In this document: in pieces, positions 1,937-18,640 of the stretch
Numbering within the stretch: position 1 is the first letter of the stretch
How the letters are laid out: each line of letters starts with the position of its first letter
Notes under the pieces: model-generated
Told to the model about the DNA's origin: nothing
The model's input: the letters and a program-made list of their open reading frames with translations, nothing else
The model's database searches: none
Translations under genes and position numbers: made by a program
Source of the DNA: Escherichia phage vB_EcoS_ESCO40
Length of the DNA stretch: 64,000 nt
Sequence record: NC_106514.1
Direction: 5' to 3' (one strand)

Positions 1937-2329
1937 ATGGAACAAGTATATTGGCGTCAGATTGATCCTAGTTTGGTGAAGCGTGCGGAGAAGCTGCTAC
2001 AACGTTGGTTGGGGGTAAGACAAGCCTCCTTCACTTTTCCAGAGCAGCAAATAGATGATCCCTGTGTTGGTGTTTTCCTATCAGGCTACGCTAGGGAATG
2101 GGAATTGGATTGGAATGAATTGTCTGCTATGGGTTTAATTGTTGCACTAAATTTCTCTTTGTTCCATCCACGTGGTTTGGCCATATGTCGTGTGCCTGGT
2201 GACGGTTGTTCGCCCCATCTTTTACAGGTGGAAGATGATATTTGGGAGTACACTCCAGGTATTCTCAAAGAAGCTAAAGAACAATTAAATCGTGTTGGAA
2301 TCTATGTTCCGGGACTAAATGATGAATAA
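1937..2329 (+). CDS. hypothetical protein, paralog of adjacent gene
   Basis: 130-aa ORF; tandem duplicate of the 1499-1927 product by shared motif pattern. Confidence 0.55.
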   Translation: MEQVYWRQIDPSLVKRAEKLLQRWLGVRQASFTFPEQQIDDPCVGVFLSGYAREWELDWNELSAMGLIVALNFSLFHPRGLAICRVPGDGCSPHLLQVEDDIWEYTPGILKEAKEQLNRVGIYVPGLNDE

Positions 2330-2513
2330 AGAATATTGGGTATGTTATGGTAAAATTAAAAAGTGGAATAAGGGTCAACTTTCCGCTAAACAAGTAAAAT
2401 TTATGGCGAGATATTTGACTGATCCCACTTTCGATATTAAAAAGTTAAGTAGCTCAAACCGCGCTATTATACTTAAATTTGCTAATACTATTCGTGGTCT
2501 TTTTTATGATTAA
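2319..2513 (+). CDS. hypothetical protein (64 aa)
   Basis: ORF overlapping upstream stop; followed by a hairpin. Confidence 0.4.
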   Translation: MMNKEYWVCYGKIKKWNKGQLSAKQVKFMARYLTDPTFDIKKLSSSNRAIILKFANTIRGLFYD

Positions 2514-2521
2514 TCCGTATA

Positions 2522-2548
2522 ACCGAGTCATTTTGGCTCGGTTTTCTC
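2522..2548 (+). terminator. putative intrinsic terminator
   Basis: Stem AACCGAG/CTCGGTT with 9-nt loop followed by TTCTCT. Confidence 0.4.
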
Positions 2549-2589
2549 TGTACTCAAAGACACTGATAGCACCATCCGGAAAATTTTAC

Positions 2590-2618
2590 TTGCATGATAC
2601 TCAAAATCTTGATATAAT
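2590..2618 (+). promoter_or_regulatory. T5-type early promoter (family member P1)
   Basis: TTGCAT-17 bp-TATAAT followed by conserved initial transcribed sequence ATTTATATTGAATTGAGAGA. Confidence 0.7.
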
Positions 2619-3118
2619 ATTTATATTGAATTGAGAGACATTAGTAAAAATTGGTTTTACTAATTTTTCTTGTTTACAATCCGCGATACGGAACAGTTAG
2701 GCTGCCCCATTAAGGGTTGTTTTAACTGTTACGTGTTAGTTTTTAAACAAATAGTTAATAGAATACTTAGCGATCTGCGTCCCATAGGAACCCTGGTAAG
2801 GCCTCGAAGCAACCTAGTATGAGGTGGTTGTGAAGTGAGATGGGAGGAGTGAAAAACTACCGAGACGTGATTCTGTAAGTTATATTGCATCTAGTATGAG
2901 CTAGTATATGAAGCATTAGGTGAGCAAATCTGGCTTAGCGGCCATCCTCAAGGATTTGTGCGGTATAATGAGGCAGCAGCGCAGCGTGAAAGTGGAAGTT
3001 GCCACCCCACTTCAGTATTTGCGATTAATTTGTTGAGAAATTGACAGTAACAGTTGTTCTATTCTTTCTGAATAGTCCTAAAGAAAACTTATTTCATTTC
3101 CAACACAGGAGTATTGTT

Positions 3119-5908
3119 GTGTTTTCAATCCTACAAGGTCATGCAGGATTTCATCGCGATTTAGCCACAGGCAATTGGCGAGAAGTTAAAGCAGAAGATT
3201 ATCTTTTTGCTAAAAGATTTTCCTCAAAGCATCCTGAAGGTAAACCAGCTTCAATGCCCTTCAAGTTTGATGTAATTGACGAAGTTGATCCTCAAACCCT
3301 AGTAGAAATGCTCCCTCTTATGAGACGTTTAACGTCTGACCCTCATATCGTTGCGGTACGAGGTCGATGTCTTGCACCTAAAAATAATGTGCGGCGTAAG
3401 AAGGGCAACTTTAATGTATCTAATCCAAGTCATATAATCGCAATGGATGTGGATGGTATTGTAGATACAGGAGGTTGTAACAAGTTTGATCTTGTTGGCG
3501 TGGCTCGACATATTATTAGGATGTTAAATAGTATTAGTGAGGATATGTTTCCTCTTGATGCAGGGTTTATCGCTCATGCATCGTCTTCGGCTGGACTAAA
3601 ACCAGGTATCCGAATGCACTTAATACTAGAATCTAATGTTAAAGTTACACAGGGTCAGATCAAGTTCTTATTTACATCTATCAACGAAAGTAGTAGACAA
3701 AAGTATGGCTTTGATATTGCCGACTTAGCTTATTACTCTTCCGTACAGCTCCACTATTTCGCAGATCCTTTATTTATTGATGGTATAGTCGATCCGTTTA
3801 AAGCGGAGGGTGCTTCACGTCTGGTATTTGTTAAAGGCTCAAAAGTAAATTTACCTAATAATCTAGTTGACTATGAAACAACTAGAGGAGAGTTTAAAGA
3901 GGAATTCTACTCTTTACTCGATCAAATTAAAGGTAAAAAAGCTGCCTCTGATAAAGTAGAGGAAACTATCAGTGAGCTAGAAGAGGCTGATGATGGGGTA
4001 TACTTACGTATTATTCCAAAGCTATATCACCGAGCGTTAGAGGATGGGGTAGATTTTGGTTGGCTAGAAAAAGAAATCCGCCCAGCTTTATCAGAATATA
4101 TTGCAACTAAAGATAATAGCCGTAATATTCAGGATTATTTCAATAACGGACGGAAACAGGCATTAAAAGCCTTTGTGAATAACTCTAAGCGTGAGATCCC
4201 TGAAGTATTAAAAGGTATCCCCCTTAAAAAGCTAGAAACTAATTCACTAGAGACTGACAACTTCTTGAAATTAAATACTGTACCACCAGAAGGCTATATG
4301 ACTTTTGTAAAAGCAAGTCTAGGCACAGGTAAAACCACGGCGGTTGTGCGTTGGTTAGATTCAGGGGTTATTAAAGGTAATTTCTTAGCAATTACCAATA
4401 CTAGAGCACTGGTATCTTCAAATGCTAAGAAATTTAGTGCAGGACAATATGATAAGTCTGTAGATATGCTTAATTTTAAGCGTGGTGCTATTGACCGTAT
4501 GTCCACAACTATTCACTCTTTGCATAAATTCAAGAGTTTTATTGGTCAAATTGACGCAATCTTTATCGATGAATGTGATGCAGTAATGAATGACCTATTA
4601 TTCGCTCCGGTTGTTAAGCAACGTCGCGAGTGTATTCAGGTTCTTCGTGATATTCTTGCAACTGCAAAAATAATTATATTATCTGATGGGGATATTAGTG
4701 CAGAAACAATTGAAGCATATGGTTCTTTGATTGAGTTCGATAAACCAGTTGCATTTTACAATCACCACCGTAAAATGCTGTCAAAAGCTCATGCTTATGA
4801 GTTCCCTGATGAATCCAGTATTTGGGTTGCACTTCAGACTTCTCTAGAGATGGGTGAGAAATCTATTCTAGTATCTGATTGTGGCCCGGATGAGCTGAAT
4901 GAGAAAGGTATGGCACTGCGTCGTAATACGGGTGCGTTAGTTAAGGAAATCCATTCAAACTCTACCTCAGATGTGGATATTCGACGTATTCTGGATTACA
5001 CAACTAATGAACTAATTGATCAACAAATTGATTGCTTATTATGTAGTCCATCCGTAACGAGTGGTGTTGACTTTAACTATTTTGATAACGTATTTGTTAT
5101 TACTAGAACTAGTAATCAAGCGCCAAACATGCGTTTTCAAGCAATCAGGCGCGACCGTGGTGCTCAGAATATCTATTATTTTATTGATAAATCCACTAGT
5201 GGGTTCTCTGCTGGTTCTGAACAATATAATATTGATGAAGGTTGGCTGGAGTTAGCACAGCAGTTATATGCGCGTCGCAGGGAGCTAGAATCTAGGAACT
5301 ATACTAGTACTTTACGTTATTACTTGCTTGATCAAGGTGCAACTATTGATATTTTCAGCGAAAGCTGGGGAACTATTGAAGGTGCTGGTAAAGAGTACAC
5401 AGAAGAGCGAATCAAAGCTATTCTGCATTCAACTCCAGATTATTGTGCTCCACGTCATGCGGATGCGTATGAAGCTAAACTACTTCTTGTTCGCTATTAT
5501 CATCTTGAGTCTATTAAAGATGTAACAGTTGAGCATGTTGAACAATATATCAAAGATAAGCCGAATGATCGAGCTGCATTCTTCCATAAGATGCACGAGA
5601 TGTTCTGGGAAGATATTAAGAAGTGTTCAAATGTGACCATTAAACCATTCATAGAAGCTCTGAAAGGTAAGAAGAAGGACTTCTTCCTTAAAACAGGTCA
5701 GAGTGCTAACCCAAAATATGCTAGAATGTATCTTGGTATGATGGGTATTGGTAAAGATATGAACACGGAGAATATCGTAGACTGGTACAGAACCTATTGT
5801 AAAATCGAGTGTATGCCAATTCCTTATAAGTTCATGACTGACGAGGAAAAACATATGCACGATGAAGCAATGTCAGAGCTAGGTGCTAGAAATGACAGTG
5901 AAGAATAA
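3119..5908 (+). CDS. SF2 helicase-domain protein, putative replication initiator / origin-binding-like
   Basis: Walker A GTGKTT and DExD-like IFIDECD in central region; ORF open from 3041 (TTG); GTG at 3119 follows AGGAG by 7 nt; start uncertain. Confidence 0.6.
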   Translation: MFSILQGHAGFHRDLATGNWREVKAEDYLFAKRFSSKHPEGKPASMPFKFDVIDEVDPQTLVEMLPLMRRLTSDPHIVAVRGRCLAPKNNVRRKKGNFNVSNPSHIIAMDVDGIVDTGGCNKFDLVGVARHIIRMLNSISEDMFPLDAGFIAHASSSAGLKPGIRMHLILESNVKVTQGQIKFLFTSINESSRQKYGFDIADLAYYSSVQLHYFADPLFIDGIVDPFKAEGASRLVFVKGSKVNLPNNLVDYETTRGEFKEEFYSLLDQIKGKKAASDKVEETISELEEADDGVYLRIIPKLYHRALEDGVDFGWLEKEIRPALSEYIATKDNSRNIQDYFNNGRKQALKAFVNNSKREIPEVLKGIPLKKLETNSLETDNFLKLNTVPPEGYMTFVKASLGTGKTTAVVRWLDSGVIKGNFLAITNTRALVSSNAKKFSAGQYDKSVDMLNFKRGAIDRMSTTIHSLHKFKSFIGQIDAIFIDECDAVMNDLLFAPVVKQRRECIQVLRDILATAKIIILSDGDISAETIEAYGSLIEFDKPVAFYNHHRKMLSKAHAYEFPDESSIWVALQTSLEMGEKSILVSDCGPDELNEKGMALRRNTGALVKEIHSNSTSDVDIRRILDYTTNELIDQQIDCLLCSPSVTSGVDFNYFDNVFVITRTSNQAPNMRFQAIRRDRGAQNIYYFIDKSTSGFSAGSEQYNIDEGWLELAQQLYARRRELESRNYTSTLRYYLLDQGATIDIFSESWGTIEGAGKEYTEERIKAILHSTPDYCAPRHADAYEAKLLLVRYYHLESIKDVTVEHVEQYIKDKPNDRAAFFHKMHEMFWEDIKKCSNVTIKPFIEALKGKKKDFFLKTGQSANPKYARMYLGMMGIGKDMNTENIVDWYRTYCKIECMPIPYKFMTDEEKHMHDEAMSELGARNDSEE

Positions 5909-6125
5909 AAAATGGGAAACAAGGAAGTTTCCAGTAAAAGAACGTAAGGTTCCTGTTTATGATACTTCGGAAAAGCTATGTAGGGTGGTACCACACAGAT
6001 TAGCTGGTATCCCTAACATATCCGAGTGGTTACTTAAACAACGGAGGACTAGCGTATCCCTCCGCATAGGGTTTGAGTTAGATAAAGTATATGCTGAACT
6101 TTCTTCTTTGCTCAAAGAATCATAA
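5883..6125 (+). CDS. hypothetical protein (80 aa)
   Basis: ORF overlapping the end of the upstream gene; no motif recognised. Confidence 0.35.
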   Translation: MLEMTVKNKKWETRKFPVKERKVPVYDTSEKLCRVVPHRLAGIPNISEWLLKQRRTSVSLRIGFELDKVYAELSSLLKES

Positions 6126-6193: not shown

Positions 6194-6898
6194 ATGGCTG
6201 GTTCTCGCAGAAAGAAACATATCCATGAAATCCCGGATGAAGTCTTTAAAAAAGTTATAGAGCATCTGGAGAACGGTGGTACTAAGAAAGCAGCATGTGA
6301 AATGCTCGGCGTATCATCCAATCCAACTATGGAAAGGATGATTGAAGAATGGCAAGACCGCCAGATTCAAGTTGCCGAAATGAAGAAAAAGAAACGTGGT
6401 ACACTCATTGAAGGTATTGAGTTGGCCAACGTTATTGAGCAGTATCTATCTGGTGACTCCTTTGAGGAGATTGCCGATCGTAATTATCGTTCTGTAGCAA
6501 TGGTTAAATCTGTTCTGGAACGATATGGTGCTCTACTTCGTTTGAACGATATTGTAGATCCATTGAATCCACCAATTATTCCTGATGATGCTGTAGCAGA
6601 AGAATTTGAGGTAGGCGAGCTTGTTTGGGTTCCTGGATACCAGTGTATCGGTGAAATCAAAAAGGCAATGGATAATCCTGTTGGTTGCTACCGTGTATGG
6701 CTTCTATCAGAAGGCAAACAACAGAACGTTCATTATATGAATTATGAATTAGCTTCTGTAAAGCATTTGGAAAAGTTAGGGGTTGACGTAAAATCTCTGG
6801 GGTACAAGTGGACTCGTGAAGAAGTTATTACGTTGATTAACGAAGCTGTTAAGGCTGCCCTGAAACTTGATAAAGAAAAAGGAAAACGCCGTGAGTAG
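6194..6898 (+). CDS. putative DNA-binding protein
   Basis: GAGAGGAG RBS 7 nt before ATG; N-terminal helix-turn-helix-like segment GGTKKAACEMLGVS. Confidence 0.6.
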   Translation: MAGSRRKKHIHEIPDEVFKKVIEHLENGGTKKAACEMLGVSSNPTMERMIEEWQDRQIQVAEMKKKKRGTLIEGIELANVIEQYLSGDSFEEIADRNYRSVAMVKSVLERYGALLRLNDIVDPLNPPIIPDDAVAEEFEVGELVWVPGYQCIGEIKKAMDNPVGCYRVWLLSEGKQQNVHYMNYELASVKHLEKLGVDVKSLGYKWTREEVITLINEAVKAALKLDKEKGKRRE

Positions 6899-11358: not shown

Positions 11359-11390
11359 AAGGGGAGGGGGCTATGCTCCTTCCCCTTTTT
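11359..11390 (+). terminator. putative intrinsic terminator
   Basis: AAGGGGAGG...CCTTCCCC imperfect hairpin followed by TTTTT. Confidence 0.55.
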
Positions 11391-11423
11391 GCATTTAGAA
11401 GGCACGAAAGCGTGCAAAGGAGA

Positions 11424-12896
11424 ATGACCTTGTTTAACGTGCAAGCTGTAGTGTTGAAGATGCTTCTAGCTTCAGAACAGAAGCAAATAGCATTGGAAAC
11501 ATTCTCAAAACTGCATAAAGATCATTTTAATGACGCTTTCTCCTCAATTTACCAAGCCGTCCAGAATTATTATAAAAAATATAACACAATGCCGTCCATT
11601 GACGCACTGATGCTTGAGGCTAATAGGAACGCCCGCCTTTCTCAAGCTCTAGTCGTTTTAGCTAACACTCAAATTCCAGAAGTTAGCATGGAACAGGCAC
11701 TTGAAGTCTTAGAGGCCGAGTATACACAGGATTTATTCCTGAAGCTTCTAGAAACAGACGTGCTTCAAGATTTAACAATGCTGGATCAGGGAGAAATTCT
11801 TAACCGAGTTGCCTCCCTTCACTTAAAATTAGAAGAGAAAGTAACGAATACTGGAAAAGTATTCAACGCAGATAACATGCGTATTTTCCAGAGAGAAGAA
11901 GATACCAAACTGAACTTAATCGCTCTTGGTATTTGTAATGAGTTCGATGCTCAAATTGGTTTAGCTCGCACAGAAACGTTACTGCTTGGTGGTTGGCGTG
12001 GTACTGGTAAATCCATTATCTGTTCAAACATACAGGTTCAGCAATATTTGAATGGAGATATTGCTCCATACTTCTCAATTGAGATGAAAGAACATGAAGT
12101 ATTTAGACGTAATCTAGCCATGTTAGCTGGTGTATCAGCACTAGCAATGCGTAATAATACTCTAGAAGGTGCAGCTCTGTTGAGATTAGCCAGAACTAGA
12201 GCTAGGATGTTTAATGGTGGTGAGGAGCTTTTCGATAACTTCGTTAAACAGTACACAATGGCTAAGATGAGTGATTTCTACGATATGGAAAGTAAGCTAA
12301 TAGAAGGATATGAGCTACATACTCCTATGATTATTGTTTATGATCCTGAGCTGTCTATTACAACAGTTGACGTAGAATTAAATAAATTAGTTGCTAGATA
12401 TGGGGATAAAGTTACAGTAGCTTTACTGGACTATATTAACCAAACCCGACTTCCAGACTCTAAAACCATTGATATGTATGACTGGAAAGAACAGATGGTT
12501 GTTAGCTCGTCTTTCAAATCTATCTGCCAGAAACATAACGTGGCTGGTGTAGCCCCTTACCAGATTGATCAAGATGGTAGAACACGTATGTCAAAGGGGA
12601 TTCTTGATTCCGCAGACATGGCTGCTAATCTTAATGCTGCTAAAGCTGATAATGGTCAAGGTGCTATTATGTTTGACTTCGTTAAGACCCGTTCTTCTGA
12701 TAGCGTGAAGTTTATGCCTAAAATGAACTGGGAAACCCTGCGAATGGATAACACTACCAACCTAGCAATGGAAGATATATCTCAAATGGAAGCTGAGTTC
12801 GTTATCCCTATTGAGAAGGATAAGCCAGCTCAATCTAAACGTGCTAAGAAAGACAAAGCTGAAAATTCAACAGGTGAACAGGCCAGCGATATATGA
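11424..12896 (+). CDS. DnaB-like replicative helicase
   Basis: Walker A GWRGTGKS and FSIEMKEHEVFRRNLAMLAGVS similar to DnaB motif H1a; start ambiguous (11373, 11424 or 11460). Confidence 0.7.
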   Translation: MTLFNVQAVVLKMLLASEQKQIALETFSKLHKDHFNDAFSSIYQAVQNYYKKYNTMPSIDALMLEANRNARLSQALVVLANTQIPEVSMEQALEVLEAEYTQDLFLKLLETDVLQDLTMLDQGEILNRVASLHLKLEEKVTNTGKVFNADNMRIFQREEDTKLNLIALGICNEFDAQIGLARTETLLLGGWRGTGKSIICSNIQVQQYLNGDIAPYFSIEMKEHEVFRRNLAMLAGVSALAMRNNTLEGAALLRLARTRARMFNGGEELFDNFVKQYTMAKMSDFYDMESKLIEGYELHTPMIIVYDPELSITTVDVELNKLVARYGDKVTVALLDYINQTRLPDSKTIDMYDWKEQMVVSSSFKSICQKHNVAGVAPYQIDQDGRTRMSKGILDSADMAANLNAAKADNGQGAIMFDFVKTRSSDSVKFMPKMNWETLRMDNTTNLAMEDISQMEAEFVIPIEKDKPAQSKRAKKDKAENSTGEQASDI

Positions 12897-13783
12897 GTAG
12901 AATAACAGAACTACTTGATCTGAAAGGCATTGAATATAAAGACACAGGTGGGGACATCCTCATCTGTTGTCTCAATCCAGATCATGACGATAAACACCCA
13001 AGTTTGCGTATTGACCCTGAAACAGGTATTATGCACTGCTTGAGTTGTGGCTTCGGTAAAGGTATACCGAGCATTTACCATTATTTTAATGAGACTCAGT
13101 ACCGACAGTCCCCAAGGCTATCGCAAGTACGTAAAAAGATTTCAGAGATTAGGAATGGATCAACGAATCTTGCAATTCCTGAATCTGCTTACCTTTTCGA
13201 AGGTGATTTCCGGGGTATAAGTTCTAAGACCTTGAAGAAATATTTTGCTTTCCAACACCAAGAGAGCTGGGAAGGCAGAATTGTATTCCCAATCACAGAT
13301 GCTGTTGGACGCAATATCCTATTTTTGGGTCGTTCTATAAACAGTTCTGCCCCTCCTAAATACTTAGTAAAACCAAAACAAGTTTCACCGCCAATTTTTC
13401 CTGTACGATATAATACTCCAGTTCTTATTCTAGTTGAAGGCATCTTTGATATGCTGAACCTAGAGGATAATGGTATAGACTATGCTTCTTGCTGCTTTGG
13501 TACACATCAGTTTACTTCGGATAACATTGCAGATAAGTTCAGTCCTTATATTATTGCTGGGGTAAAAGTTGTTGTTATCTTACTAGATAATGATGCTTCC
13601 GGTAATAAAGCTGCACAAGCACTGGCCAAGCTAATTCGTACAAAAACGCGTTTAACACCTGTAGTTGCTAACTTTCTTCTGCCCGAAGGTAAAGACCCCG
13701 GTGATTTAAATAAAGAAGAGATTGATATGTTAGCAAAACGTATTGAAATTTTAGTTGCTGAATCACTTAAAGATTTGGTATAA
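12893..13783 (+). CDS. DnaG-like DNA primase
   Basis: CHC2-type zinc finger (CCLNPDHDDKHPSL...CLSCGFG); TOPRIM-like LVEGIFD and LLDNDASGNKAA. Confidence 0.8.
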   Translation: MSRITELLDLKGIEYKDTGGDILICCLNPDHDDKHPSLRIDPETGIMHCLSCGFGKGIPSIYHYFNETQYRQSPRLSQVRKKISEIRNGSTNLAIPESAYLFEGDFRGISSKTLKKYFAFQHQESWEGRIVFPITDAVGRNILFLGRSINSSAPPKYLVKPKQVSPPIFPVRYNTPVLILVEGIFDMLNLEDNGIDYASCCFGTHQFTSDNIADKFSPYIIAGVKVVVILLDNDASGNKAAQALAKLIRTKTRLTPVVANFLLPEGKDPGDLNKEEIDMLAKRIEILVAESLKDLV

Positions 13784-13809
13784 TAGTCCTAAATAACTGA
13801 GGAGCTACT

Positions 13810-14139
13810 ATGGAATATGTATATATTTATGAAGATGTTCCAGTATACGATAGTATAACACACGAAGAAGTTAAACTAGAGCTATTTACAGTACTAGAGT
13901 CCCTTAATAAACGAAAGGATTTCCATTTATTTGGTGATCCTAAATTACCTGCATCTTATATTTTCTTTAAAGTAAAAGATACAGGTCAAGAGGTGTATCT
14001 AACTTATGATTGGGCTGTTGTAGAAAATACTGAGCAATCTATGAAAGTGTTAGGTGCTTTTCTGCGTATAGATGAAGAATTTCGGTCACTAGAAAAGCAG
14101 CGCAATGAAATGCGTAAATTACTACATACCTATAAATAG
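13810..14139 (+). CDS. hypothetical protein (109 aa)
   Basis: GAGGAG-type RBS; no motif recognised. Confidence 0.45.
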   Translation: MEYVYIYEDVPVYDSITHEEVKLELFTVLESLNKRKDFHLFGDPKLPASYIFFKVKDTGQEVYLTYDWAVVENTEQSMKVLGAFLRIDEEFRSLEKQRNEMRKLLHTYK

Positions 14140-14142
14140 TAT

Positions 14143-14172
14143 TTGCTATTATCCCAATATTTTTGATACAAT
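14143..14172 (+). promoter_or_regulatory. T5-type early promoter (P6)
   Basis: TTGCTA-18 bp-TACAAT; downstream leader contains the inverted repeat GGTAAGT...ACTTACC. Confidence 0.6.
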
Positions 14173-16801: not shown

Positions 16802-17291
16802 TTTCAAATTGCCCGTCTATGCGTTACGGGCGTTTGTATCAATTGAGCAAGAAGGTGATTATTCCGTAATTACAACAAGATATAATAAATATGTGCTAGA
16901 TAACAGGAAGTTGCCTGGCACGTTTTCTCAACGTAGGCTTATTCTATTTGAGAAACGGAAAGAATTACCATACAAGCTTTATCCTATTAGGGGTAGAATA
17001 TCAATGTTGTCTCAATTAGTTGGGTCAAAGCGTGACCAATTTATAGATTCTGATGGAAATCTTATTAATTGGAAGAAAACTACGTTCTATGATGTTGTCA
17101 CCTCTAAAGTTTTGCATTCAGCTAGAATTTATAATGGAAAATACCAATGCTATGTGGCTAAAGTCCCTTATCCATTTGTACTATCCTATGTTCCAGCTTA
17201 TATAAGCTATATTCTGGTAAATAATAGCCCTGTTATTTATCAAGCCCATCAAGAGGAGCCTGAAATTCCTAGACTTAGAATAAAATTATGA
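16794..17291 (+). CDS. hypothetical protein (165 aa)
   Basis: ORF overlapping polymerase stop; no motif recognised. Confidence 0.45.
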   Translation: MLNFKLPVYALRAFVSIEQEGDYSVITTRYNKYVLDNRKLPGTFSQRRLILFEKRKELPYKLYPIRGRISMLSQLVGSKRDQFIDSDGNLINWKKTTFYDVVTSKVLHSARIYNGKYQCYVAKVPYPFVLSYVPAYISYILVNNSPVIYQAHQEEPEIPRLRIKL

Positions 17292-18640
17292 AGGTTGTTA
17301 TATCTAATAAAGCCTATTTCAAGCCCGATGATGAACTTTGGGATTATTGTAGTAAGCAAACCACTTATCACATAGAGACAATGACTAGTAAATACCCTAT
17401 TATGTATAAGAATAGTGGTGTTGTTGCCAAAGAGATTAAGTGGATTCCTATTACGCGTCTGGACTTACTAGATGCTAAAGGAGTAAAATACGAATTAGTC
17501 GATAAACGCACATTAGCTCCGGTAGATATACCAAAACCTAAGTTCAAACTGCGTGAAGAAGATCAGCTTCCAATATACGAAGAATGCGATGATACCTGTA
17601 TTATTAATGGTAAGCCTGGATTTGGTAAAACTATCCTAGCCCTTGCACTTGCGTATAAATTTGGCCAGAAAACTTTGGTAATCTGTACGAATACATCCAT
17701 TCGTGAAATGTGGGCGGCAGAAGTTCGTAAATGGTTTGGGTTTGAACCAGGCATCATAGGTTCTGGGAAATACAATATTGATCCACCAATTGTAGTTAGT
17801 AATATTCAAACAGTGAATAAACATGCGAATAATCTTTCTAAAGTATTCGGTACTGTTATAGTTGATGAAGTTCACCATTGTGTAGCTACAACTTTCACTA
17901 ACTTCCTAGAAATATCATGTGCTCGCTATAAAATTGGACTATCCGGTACACTAAAACGAAAAGATGGTTTGCAAGTTATGTTCAAAGATTTCTTTGGATA
18001 TAAAATCTTTAGTCCTCCAGTTAATAATACTGTTGCTCCTACAATCCACAGGTACTCCGTACCAGTTGAATTGTCTGGAAACCAAAACGTACCGTGGGCA
18101 TTACGTGCTAACGATGTGTATAATCATCCTGAATATCGAGAGACCATTATAAACCTAGCACATTTATATGTGAATATGGGACATAAAGTACTCATTGTAA
18201 GTGATAGAACAGAGTTAATCCAAACAGTACTAGAAGCACTATCTCAGAGAGGAGTCACAACCTATGAGATTATTGGCGCAACCCACTTAGATGACCGATT
18301 AAAAATTCAGGAAGATATAGCAAAAGGTGGGTCTTGTGTACTTGCAGCAGCTCAAAGTATCTTCTCTGAAGGTATTTCCCTTAACGAGCTGTCTTGTTTA
18401 ATAATGGGAAGCCTCATTAATAATGAATCTCTCATCGAACAGCTTGCAGGCCGTGTTCAACGTATTGTCGATGGTAAACTCGACCCTATTGTTGTAGATC
18501 TAATTATGAAAGGTGGCACTGGGTTAAGGCAGGCTTCTGGACGTATGGCAGTATATCGTAACAACGGGTGGAAAACTATTACTATGACTCCGGAGAAAGC
18601 AGTTCAATTAGCTAAAATTGCATTTGGCAACAGCTCATAA
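17288..18640 (+). CDS. SF2 DNA helicase (DEVH-box)
   Basis: Walker A GKPGFGKT, Walker B VIVDEVHH, C-terminal helicase motifs (QLAGRVQR). Confidence 0.75.
   Translation: MKVVISNKAYFKPDDELWDYCSKQTTYHIETMTSKYPIMYKNSGVVAKEIKWIPITRLDLLDAKGVKYELVDKRTLAPVDIPKPKFKLREEDQLPIYEECDDTCIINGKPGFGKTILALALAYKFGQKTLVICTNTSIREMWAAEVRKWFGFEPGIIGSGKYNIDPPIVVSNIQTVNKHANNLSKVFGTVIVDEVHHCVATTFTNFLEISCARYKIGLSGTLKRKDGLQVMFKDFFGYKIFSPPVNNTVAPTIHRYSVPVELSGNQNVPWALRANDVYNHPEYRETIINLAHLYVNMGHKVLIVSDRTELIQTVLEALSQRGVTTYEIIGATHLDDRLKIQEDIAKGGSCVLAAAQSIFSEGISLNELSCLIMGSLINNESLIEQLAGRVQRIVDGKLDPIVVDLIMKGGTGLRQASGRMAVYRNNGWKTITMTPEKAVQLAKIAFGNSS

Follow-up and report, generated by a model that had tools for sequence, protein, structure and literature searches.

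The 64,000-nucleotide (nt) stretch analysed here (hereafter the window; Escherichia phage vB_EcoS_ESCO40, NC_106514.1) belongs to a T5-like phage of the Demerecviridae. Its plus strand encodes, at positions 3119-5908, a 929-residue protein with a superfamily 2 (SF2) helicase core, which is with near certainty the ortholog of T5.108, the bipolar SF2 helicase “D2” of phage T5. The two proteins share 93% amino-acid (aa) identity across 926 residues, and PHROG 3712 (“replication origin binding”) is matched end to end, over residues 1-926 of the 927-position profile (E = 0). Full-length similarity, together with a shared genomic position, places the protein in the T5 D2/PHROG 3712 ortholog group. 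A megablast search with the open reading frame (ORF) retrieved 455 phage records, nearly all from T5-like phages of Salmonella, Escherichia and Klebsiella (Demerecviridae), the closest full-length DNA matches being 97% identical. Beyond the helicase core, the N-terminal third very probably adopts the fold of an archaeo-eukaryotic primase (AEP). The gene and the parts of its product are as follows:

3119..5908, plus strand: coding sequence of the D2-type primase-like/helicase protein, 929 aa, stop codon TAA at 5906-5908; ortholog of T5 T5.108 (YP_006936)
3119..3862, plus strand: alpha/beta AEP-like domain, aa 1-248
3437-3457, plus strand: predicted AEP motif I, IAMDVDG, with D110 and D112
3581-3619, plus strand: predicted AEP motif II, SSSAGLKPGIRMH, with S155, S157 and H167
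3722-3724, plus strand: codon of D202 in predicted AEP motif III, IAD
aa 250-258: disordered linker, as modelled
3899..4186, plus strand: five-helix bundle, aa 261-356, from secondary structure and predicted local distance difference test (pLDDT) scores
4286..5203, plus strand: UL9-like SF2 helicase core of two RecA-like domains, aa 390-695
5138-5161, plus strand: helicase motif VI, QAIRRDRG
5204..5905, plus strand: all-alpha C-terminal domain, aa 696-929, conserved, with RH.DA at aa 779-783

The protein was aligned with 54 homologs of ~900-1,050 residues that are 33-82% identical to it, and its whole length is conserved across this alignment. AlphaFold models reached a pLDDT of 87 at full length and 89.9 for residues 1-385. 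A first-pass annotation made from the window alone had placed the helicase motifs in the middle third only and had recognised nothing on either side. Indeed, the Walker A motif GTGKTT (aa 402-407, nt 4322-4339) and helicase motif II, IFIDECD (aa 481-487, nt 4559-4579), are confined to that third, and Pfam is silent on aa 1-390 and 690-929 even at E ≤ 10.

The structural matches of the domain at aa 1-248 are AEPs (PrimPol, poxvirus E5/D5, herpes simplex virus (HSV) UL52, LigD and pRN1), and the modelled domain appears to have the AEP catalytic fold. Ten residues of the N-terminal third are invariant among the homologs: K32, R93, D110, D112, S155, S157, H167, Q180, D202 and Y206. Six of them fall in the hhhDhD, SSSAG...H and hhD patterns, which are the three AEP motifs as the literature defines them (PMC5862659). 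Motif I (hhhDhD/E) reads IIAMDVD and lies on the strand at aa 104-114, with D110 and D112 invariant in the homologs and in the wider family. Motif II reads SSSAG...RMH; its S155, S157 and H167 never vary within the D2 family and hardly vary in the wider one, and D202 of motif III (hD/E) is invariant in all alignments.

Foldseek comparison with viral models (BFVD) pointed the same way. Beyond its own family, the 385-residue N-terminal model matched phage proteins named primase, “DNA primase”, primase/helicase, “Primase C-terminal 2”/PriCT_2, VirE, DUF927 and NrS-1-like, with E values of 5e-9 to 4e-4. The alignments cover most of the model, helical bundle included, and extend over 376-382 columns for the “Primase, C-terminal 2” proteins. 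The modelled bundle is PriCT-positioned, sitting where PriCT domains sit in primase-helicases, and it contains the helix-turn-helix (HTH) predicted for T5 D2 (aa 308-329; PMC3632103).

The N-terminal domain is also widespread on its own. Its profile detected 2,143 cluster representatives at E ≤ 1e-3 (588 at E ≤ 1e-10) among 1.84 billion proteins, with lengths of 213-1,336 aa. As 117 of the 144 matches examined share that domain alone, it is a mobile module, and more than 100 architectures other than that of D2 contain it as an independent unit. The fusion partners of distant homologs comprise VapE/VirE, DUF5906, AAA_25 (RepA-like), PriCT_2, D5_N and TIGR01613 (the C-terminal region of P4-type primases), and such partners are standard for AEP primases of mobile elements (PMC5862659). 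A word-indexed homolog search with an N-terminal fragment retrieved only fragments of the same family.

In the middle of the protein, Pfam matches are restricted to aa 394-533, with PF02399 (Herpes_ori_bp) at 29.2 bits (cut-off 20) and a weak DEAD match. The PF02399 match is above the gathering threshold but takes in only profile positions 51-197 of 820. Three motifs of UL9-like SF2 helicases, GTGKTT, IFIDECD and QAIRRDRG, are present and invariant in the homologs. Sequence search against the PDB gave HSV-1 UL9, in structures of 2025-26, as the best match, with similarity limited to aa 386-532. Full-length Foldseek search against the PDB likewise ranked UL9 (9hgj and 9hgi) first, with an E value of ~1e-14, followed by Hel308, DEAD-box and RecQ helicases; these alignments are helicase-dominated, long and gapped, and uninformative on the relation of the C-terminal domain to the UL9 DNA-binding domain. 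PDB profile searches with full-length, N-domain and C-domain alignments detected the UL9 helicase core and nothing else of note, as matches to OT3, an affibody and ZapD look spurious.

This core is already known biochemically from T5. Wong, Sayers & Sanders (NAR 2013) showed that T5.108, produced as His-MBP-D2 and cloned from the codon equivalent to GTG 3119, is a DNA-dependent ATPase and bipolar helicase (PMC3632103). Its 3'-5' unwinding is robust and its 5'-3' unwinding weaker and salt-sensitive, and both are abolished by K405E (PMC3632103). K405 is the Walker A lysine here too, with numbering identical to that of T5 D2. That study noted only the PF02399 region, four helicase motifs, the HTH at aa 308-329 and two coiled coils, without describing a primase-like domain, and proposed an initiator role by analogy with UL9 (PMC3632103).

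The C-terminal domain is modelled with a pLDDT of ~90 as ~12 helices. G699, R720, E724, L736 and G740 are invariant among the 54 homologs, and R779, H780, D782 and A783 nearly so. The domain is net acidic (isoelectric point, pI, 5.6) and was seen only together with D2-type helicase; Pfam, PHROG, NCBIfam, PDB profile and word-indexed searches found no relatives outside the family. Its role could lie in DNA or origin binding, in dimerisation as in UL9, or in assisting the helicase as an accessory “ratchet”.

Compared to T5 D2 (YP_006936/AAU05245), the protein has the same length, start codon, K405 numbering and genomic position, and nothing substantive differs apart from the gene hegI that follows it in T5. 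The closest solved helicase core by both sequence and fold is that of HSV UL9 (PF02399; PDB 9hgj, 9hgi, 9zgf and 9vjh), also of SF2. However, UL9 lacks an AEP domain (in herpesviruses the primase, UL52, is a separate protein), and it unwinds 3'-5' only whereas T5 D2 is bipolar. UL9 possesses a 316-residue C-terminal DNA-binding domain with the DNA-recognition motif RVKNL (PMC12543377); by contrast, RVKNL is absent from D2, whose C-terminal profile retrieves neither UL9 nor any other relative.

The RepA protein of phage N15 (gp37; PHROG 4913, telomere phages) has the same UL9-like helicase, as shown by hhalign (probability 95.9%, E = 6e-9, D2 334-686 against RepA 466-838; PHROG 4913, E = 2e-23). 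In both RepA and D2, the helicase is preceded by a primase module and followed by a long C-terminal extension. However, RepA is 1,324 aa long, the C-terminal regions do not align, and its primase is Toprim_3 (PF13362), not AEP. The presence of Toprim in RepA where D2 has an AEP-like domain indicates a non-homologous replacement; Pfam finds no Toprim match in D2, which is therefore not of the N15 RepA type.

The module order of D2, namely AEP, helical PriCT-type, NTPase/helicase and C-terminal domains, recurs in pRN1 ORF904, the NrS-1 primase-polymerase and vaccinia D5/monkeypox virus (MPXV) E5. The AEP motifs, with the motif II histidine, are common to D2 and the AEP primase-helicases of mobile elements, whereas the helicase is of SF2 in D2 compared to SF3, SF4 or MCM in the characterised AEP fusions. 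Fusions of AEPs to UL9-like SF2 helicases were described by Kazlauskas et al. 2018 for all3500-like AEPs of the PrimPol-PV1 supergroup (PMC5862659). The motif II histidine and the fusion repertoire of the N-terminal domain fit that family, as compared by description only. T5 is not named in that paper or its text supplements (PMC5862659), and our literature searches turned up no paper that assigns T5 D2 to the AEPs or PrimPols.

The coding sequence starts at GTG 3119. The longest ORF (3041..5908, plus strand) begins at TTG 3041 and would encode 955 aa, compared to 929 aa from GTG 3119. The first-pass annotation, which had taken this longest ORF for an annotated one (the window itself carries no annotation), nonetheless preferred GTG 3119 with its AGGAG ribosome-binding site, and rightly so. 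In an alignment with AKFV33, 26175V, phiR201 and Klebsiella phage Spivey, the AGGAG and the position of the start codon (ATG in Spivey) are invariant. By contrast, TTG 3041 is not conserved, and the stretch between the two codons has indels of 1, 2, 4 and 5 nt among relatives. In AKFV33, phiR201 and Spivey, moreover, the frame upstream of the GTG or ATG runs to its first stop without passing another start codon. The invariant AGGAG and start, the frame-breaking indels and these three relatives together establish GTG 3119, and the in-frame extension 3041..3118 (plus strand) was rejected as coding, given the unconserved TTG and the indels, and is taken as 5' leader. The equivalent start is annotated in T5, DT57C, AKFV33, phiR201 and Spivey (928-929 aa). 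In Escherichia phage vB_EcoS-26175V (MK907271, from 399), the ortholog is annotated 96 nt further upstream, giving 961 aa; judged from the sequence comparison, this longer start is probably wrong. Three elements were mapped around the start:

3059..3075, plus strand: inverted repeat CTATTC-TTTCT-GAATAG, inside a conserved leader block at ~3050-3090
3102..3123, plus strand: predicted hairpin over the initiation region, AACACAG 3102-3108 pairing with UUGUGUU 3117-3123 (RNAalifold, five relatives)
3107..3111, plus strand: Shine-Dalgarno sequence AGGAG, 7 nt before GTG 3119, invariant in five relatives

Conservation of the leader block, AGTTGTTCTATTCTTTCTGAATAGTCCTAAAGAAA, reaches from T5 to Klebsiella phage Spivey, and the block contains the hairpin or palindrome CTATTC-N5-GAATAG. 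The form CTATTC-TTTCT-GAATAG is kept in AKFV33, 26175V, phiR201 and T5, and the Spivey version, CTATC-CTT-GATAG, has matched deletions in both arms that preserve the stem. The block occurs once in the window and could control the D2 gene, either as an operator or as an RNA element. The predicted hairpin at 3102-3123 would pair the start codon GUG with CAC 3104-3106 and includes part of the Shine-Dalgarno sequence. In Spivey, the change of GUG to AUG is matched by a compensatory change of CAC to CAU, and 26175V has a U.G pair. This single covariation event weakly suggests translational control.

Further upstream, the ~790 nt before the gene (2330-3118) contain only small ORFs and an AT-rich part, with a GC fraction of ~0.32 at 2300-2800. 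Similarity to distant relatives (76-86% identity) begins only at ~3023-3046, and that to Klebsiella phages at ~3101, so that 2330-3118 is a variable spot. The T5 record annotates a terminator and a promoter ~470-590 nt upstream of the T5 gene, which implies a long 5' leader. A sigma-70 promoter with TTGACA at 3041-3046 was rejected, as a correctly spaced -10 element is lacking, the hexamer is unconserved and a scan of the plus strand was empty. A search of 2300-3200 for iterons, an AT-rich unwinding element or a skew switch gave nothing convincing. In addition, Rfam reports a sub-threshold MicF match at 2462-2549 (plus strand) over the full model length (33.7 bits against a gathering score of 79, E 0.0016-0.006). 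Sixteen of its first 20 nt agree with the MicF 5' seed, and it ends in a terminator hairpin (2521-2543) followed by a T-run. The hairpin part corresponds to the terminator annotated in T5, and the 5' part lies inside a 64-residue ORF (2319-2513) that is found in only ~19 phage records and is absent from T5 and DT57C. We consider this MicF-like element probably a chance match.

The gene order agrees with that of DT57C and T5: nrdD, small ORFs, the D2-type gene, ligA/ligB, D5, the DnaB-like helicase, the DnaG-like primase and PolA, and a D10-like helicase also lies downstream. The other helicases and the primase are located as follows:

11373-12896: DnaB-like (DnaB_C-type) helicase
12893-13783: DnaG-type primase with zinc ribbon and Toprim
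17288-18640: D10-like SF2 helicase (ResIII/Helicase_C)

The replication cluster thus holds three helicases, and two primases if the AEP domain is active. Two HNH homing endonuclease genes of T5, hegI (right after the D2-type gene) and hegJ (between the DnaB-like and primase genes), are absent here, as found by comparing window 5892-6125 and 12893-12896 with T5 6319-6837 and 13615-14148. At the first of these places, the D2 coding sequence ends in a 17-nt overlap with the ORF that follows; at the second, the DnaB-like ORF ends within an overlap with the primase ORF.

Naming of the gene is inconsistent. Product names for the ortholog include “replication origin binding”, “OriC binding protein”, “helicase”, “5'-3' and 3'-5' helicase” and “hypothetical protein”, and some GenBank records already label it “DNA primase” or “DNA primase C”. 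The 929-residue helicase is called “D1” in DT57C and D2 by Wong et al. The RefSeq record of T5 (NC_005859) puts the gene name “D2” and the product “helicase” on T5.111, a protein of 234 aa. The ortholog of T5.111 (window 6194-6898, plus strand) has a weak HTH_28 match only, and the “helicase” product name on T5.111 looks mis-transferred.

Altogether, we propose, as the best-supported interpretation and somewhat more likely than not, that D2 is a primase-helicase that combines an AEP domain, a PriCT-positioned bundle, an SF2 motor biased towards 3'-5' and a family-specific C-terminal domain. In such an enzyme, the SF2 motor would open DNA or track along it 3'-5', and the N-terminal AEP domain would lay primers to be extended by the phage PolA, leaving the lagging strand to the separate DnaB-like helicase and DnaG-type primase. 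We infer that the AEP domain may be catalytically active and prime replication, that labour may be divided with DnaG and DnaB, and that the helical domains may recognise the origin. More tentatively, and with less than even support, T5-like phages could have a two-primase system, in which an active fusion of AEP and UL9-like helicase starts the leading strand, perhaps at origins recognised by its helical domains, and DnaG and DnaB make the lagging strand. On this more tentative view, the puzzling “bipolar” unwinding might be explained if the primase module offered DNA a second binding site.

Several observations weigh against a primase-helicase. In Pfam and NCBIfam, neither the N-terminal domain nor 56 distant homologs match a curated AEP family, and the only PHROG match of the N-terminal third is the family's own; one of 29 members weakly matches AEP-TOTE (E = 0.018), and PDB profile searches with N-domain alignments gave no AEP. 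The spacer between SSSAG and the histidine of motif II is unusually long compared to classical AEPs, and the residue two positions before this histidine is not always small. The AEP motifs were placed on the structure by sequence and secondary structure, not by superposed coordinates. Moreover, with a DnaG-type primase already encoded by the phage, there is no obvious need for another, and the T5 D2 study reports no primase or polymerase activity, nor did it assay for any (PMC3632103). Nothing in our analysis shows origin binding.

Part of this evidence would also fit an AEP-like domain that is a catalytically dead relic serving in DNA or protein binding, the protein being functionally a helicase with accessory domains: no primase activity is reported, no curated AEP profile matches, and a DnaG-type primase is present. 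However, the three metal- or nucleotide-binding motif positions are invariant over the 54 homologs (33-82% identity) and over more than 2,000 clusters, which argues for an active site, and we regard a relic as improbable. A little less improbable, though still unlikely, is a repair or restart enzyme, which would act in PrimPol-like repriming or as a strand-processing helicase at nicks, gaps and stalled forks instead of in initiation; T5 DNA has site-specific nicks. By far the least credible is a routine single-domain helicase with unstructured or fast-evolving extensions. Pfam does see the helicase core only, but the extensions are conserved down to 33% identity and confidently folded in the models, and the N-terminal one recurs in the other architectures mentioned above. 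The first-pass annotation had named a routine single-domain helicase as the outcome that would undo its reading of a long multi-domain protein, and on this point the reading stands.

The same annotation had suggested an origin-binding initiator with an extra domain. The extra domain is there, as the N-terminal AEP-type primase-like domain with the helical bundle behind it, whereas origin binding is unproven. As a UL9-style initiator, the protein would recognise the T5 origin through a non-helicase domain and melt it with the helicase, the N-terminal domain being accessory and non-catalytic. The PF02399 match, UL9 as the best structural match and the location of the gene in the early replication cluster are in line with this. 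N15 RepA, with the same type of helicase, is annotated as the N15 DNA replication protein and is an origin-specific initiator. The HTH predicted at aa 308-329 and the limited unwinding by T5 D2 that is independent of ATP hydrolysis also favour an initiator (PMC3632103). On the other side, the likeness to UL9, from which the “origin binding” label derives, does not extend beyond the helicase core (by sequence, aa 386-532; the long Foldseek alignments are gapped), RVKNL is absent, and the acidic C-terminal domain is without detectable relatives. In the 800 nt upstream, no iteron-like repeats or origin-like skew were seen, and the published biochemistry of T5 D2 is that of a bipolar helicase, with no origin binding published. 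A UL9-style initiator is possible, though doubtful, and more plausible than a repair enzyme; it is compatible with a primase-helicase.

The gene is already known and biochemically characterised, and AEP-helicase fusions are of a known kind; what is new, to a modest degree, is the assignment of the AEP-like domain. For T5, a classic model phage, it is still not understood how replication is initiated; few of its replication enzymes have been characterised, D2 being one of them. An intact AEP primase domain in the N-terminal third would make D2 a candidate primase-helicase rather than a plain helicase. This would explain the inconsistent gene labels in hundreds of Demerecviridae genomes and would add a large AEP-like family without a Pfam model to the catalogue of phage primases. 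Should the two-primase system hold, a tailed phage would carry, fused in one protein, an AEP and a UL9-type helicase that mirror the herpesvirus pair of UL52 and UL9, which would bear on the shared ancestry of the replication modules of Duplodnaviria.

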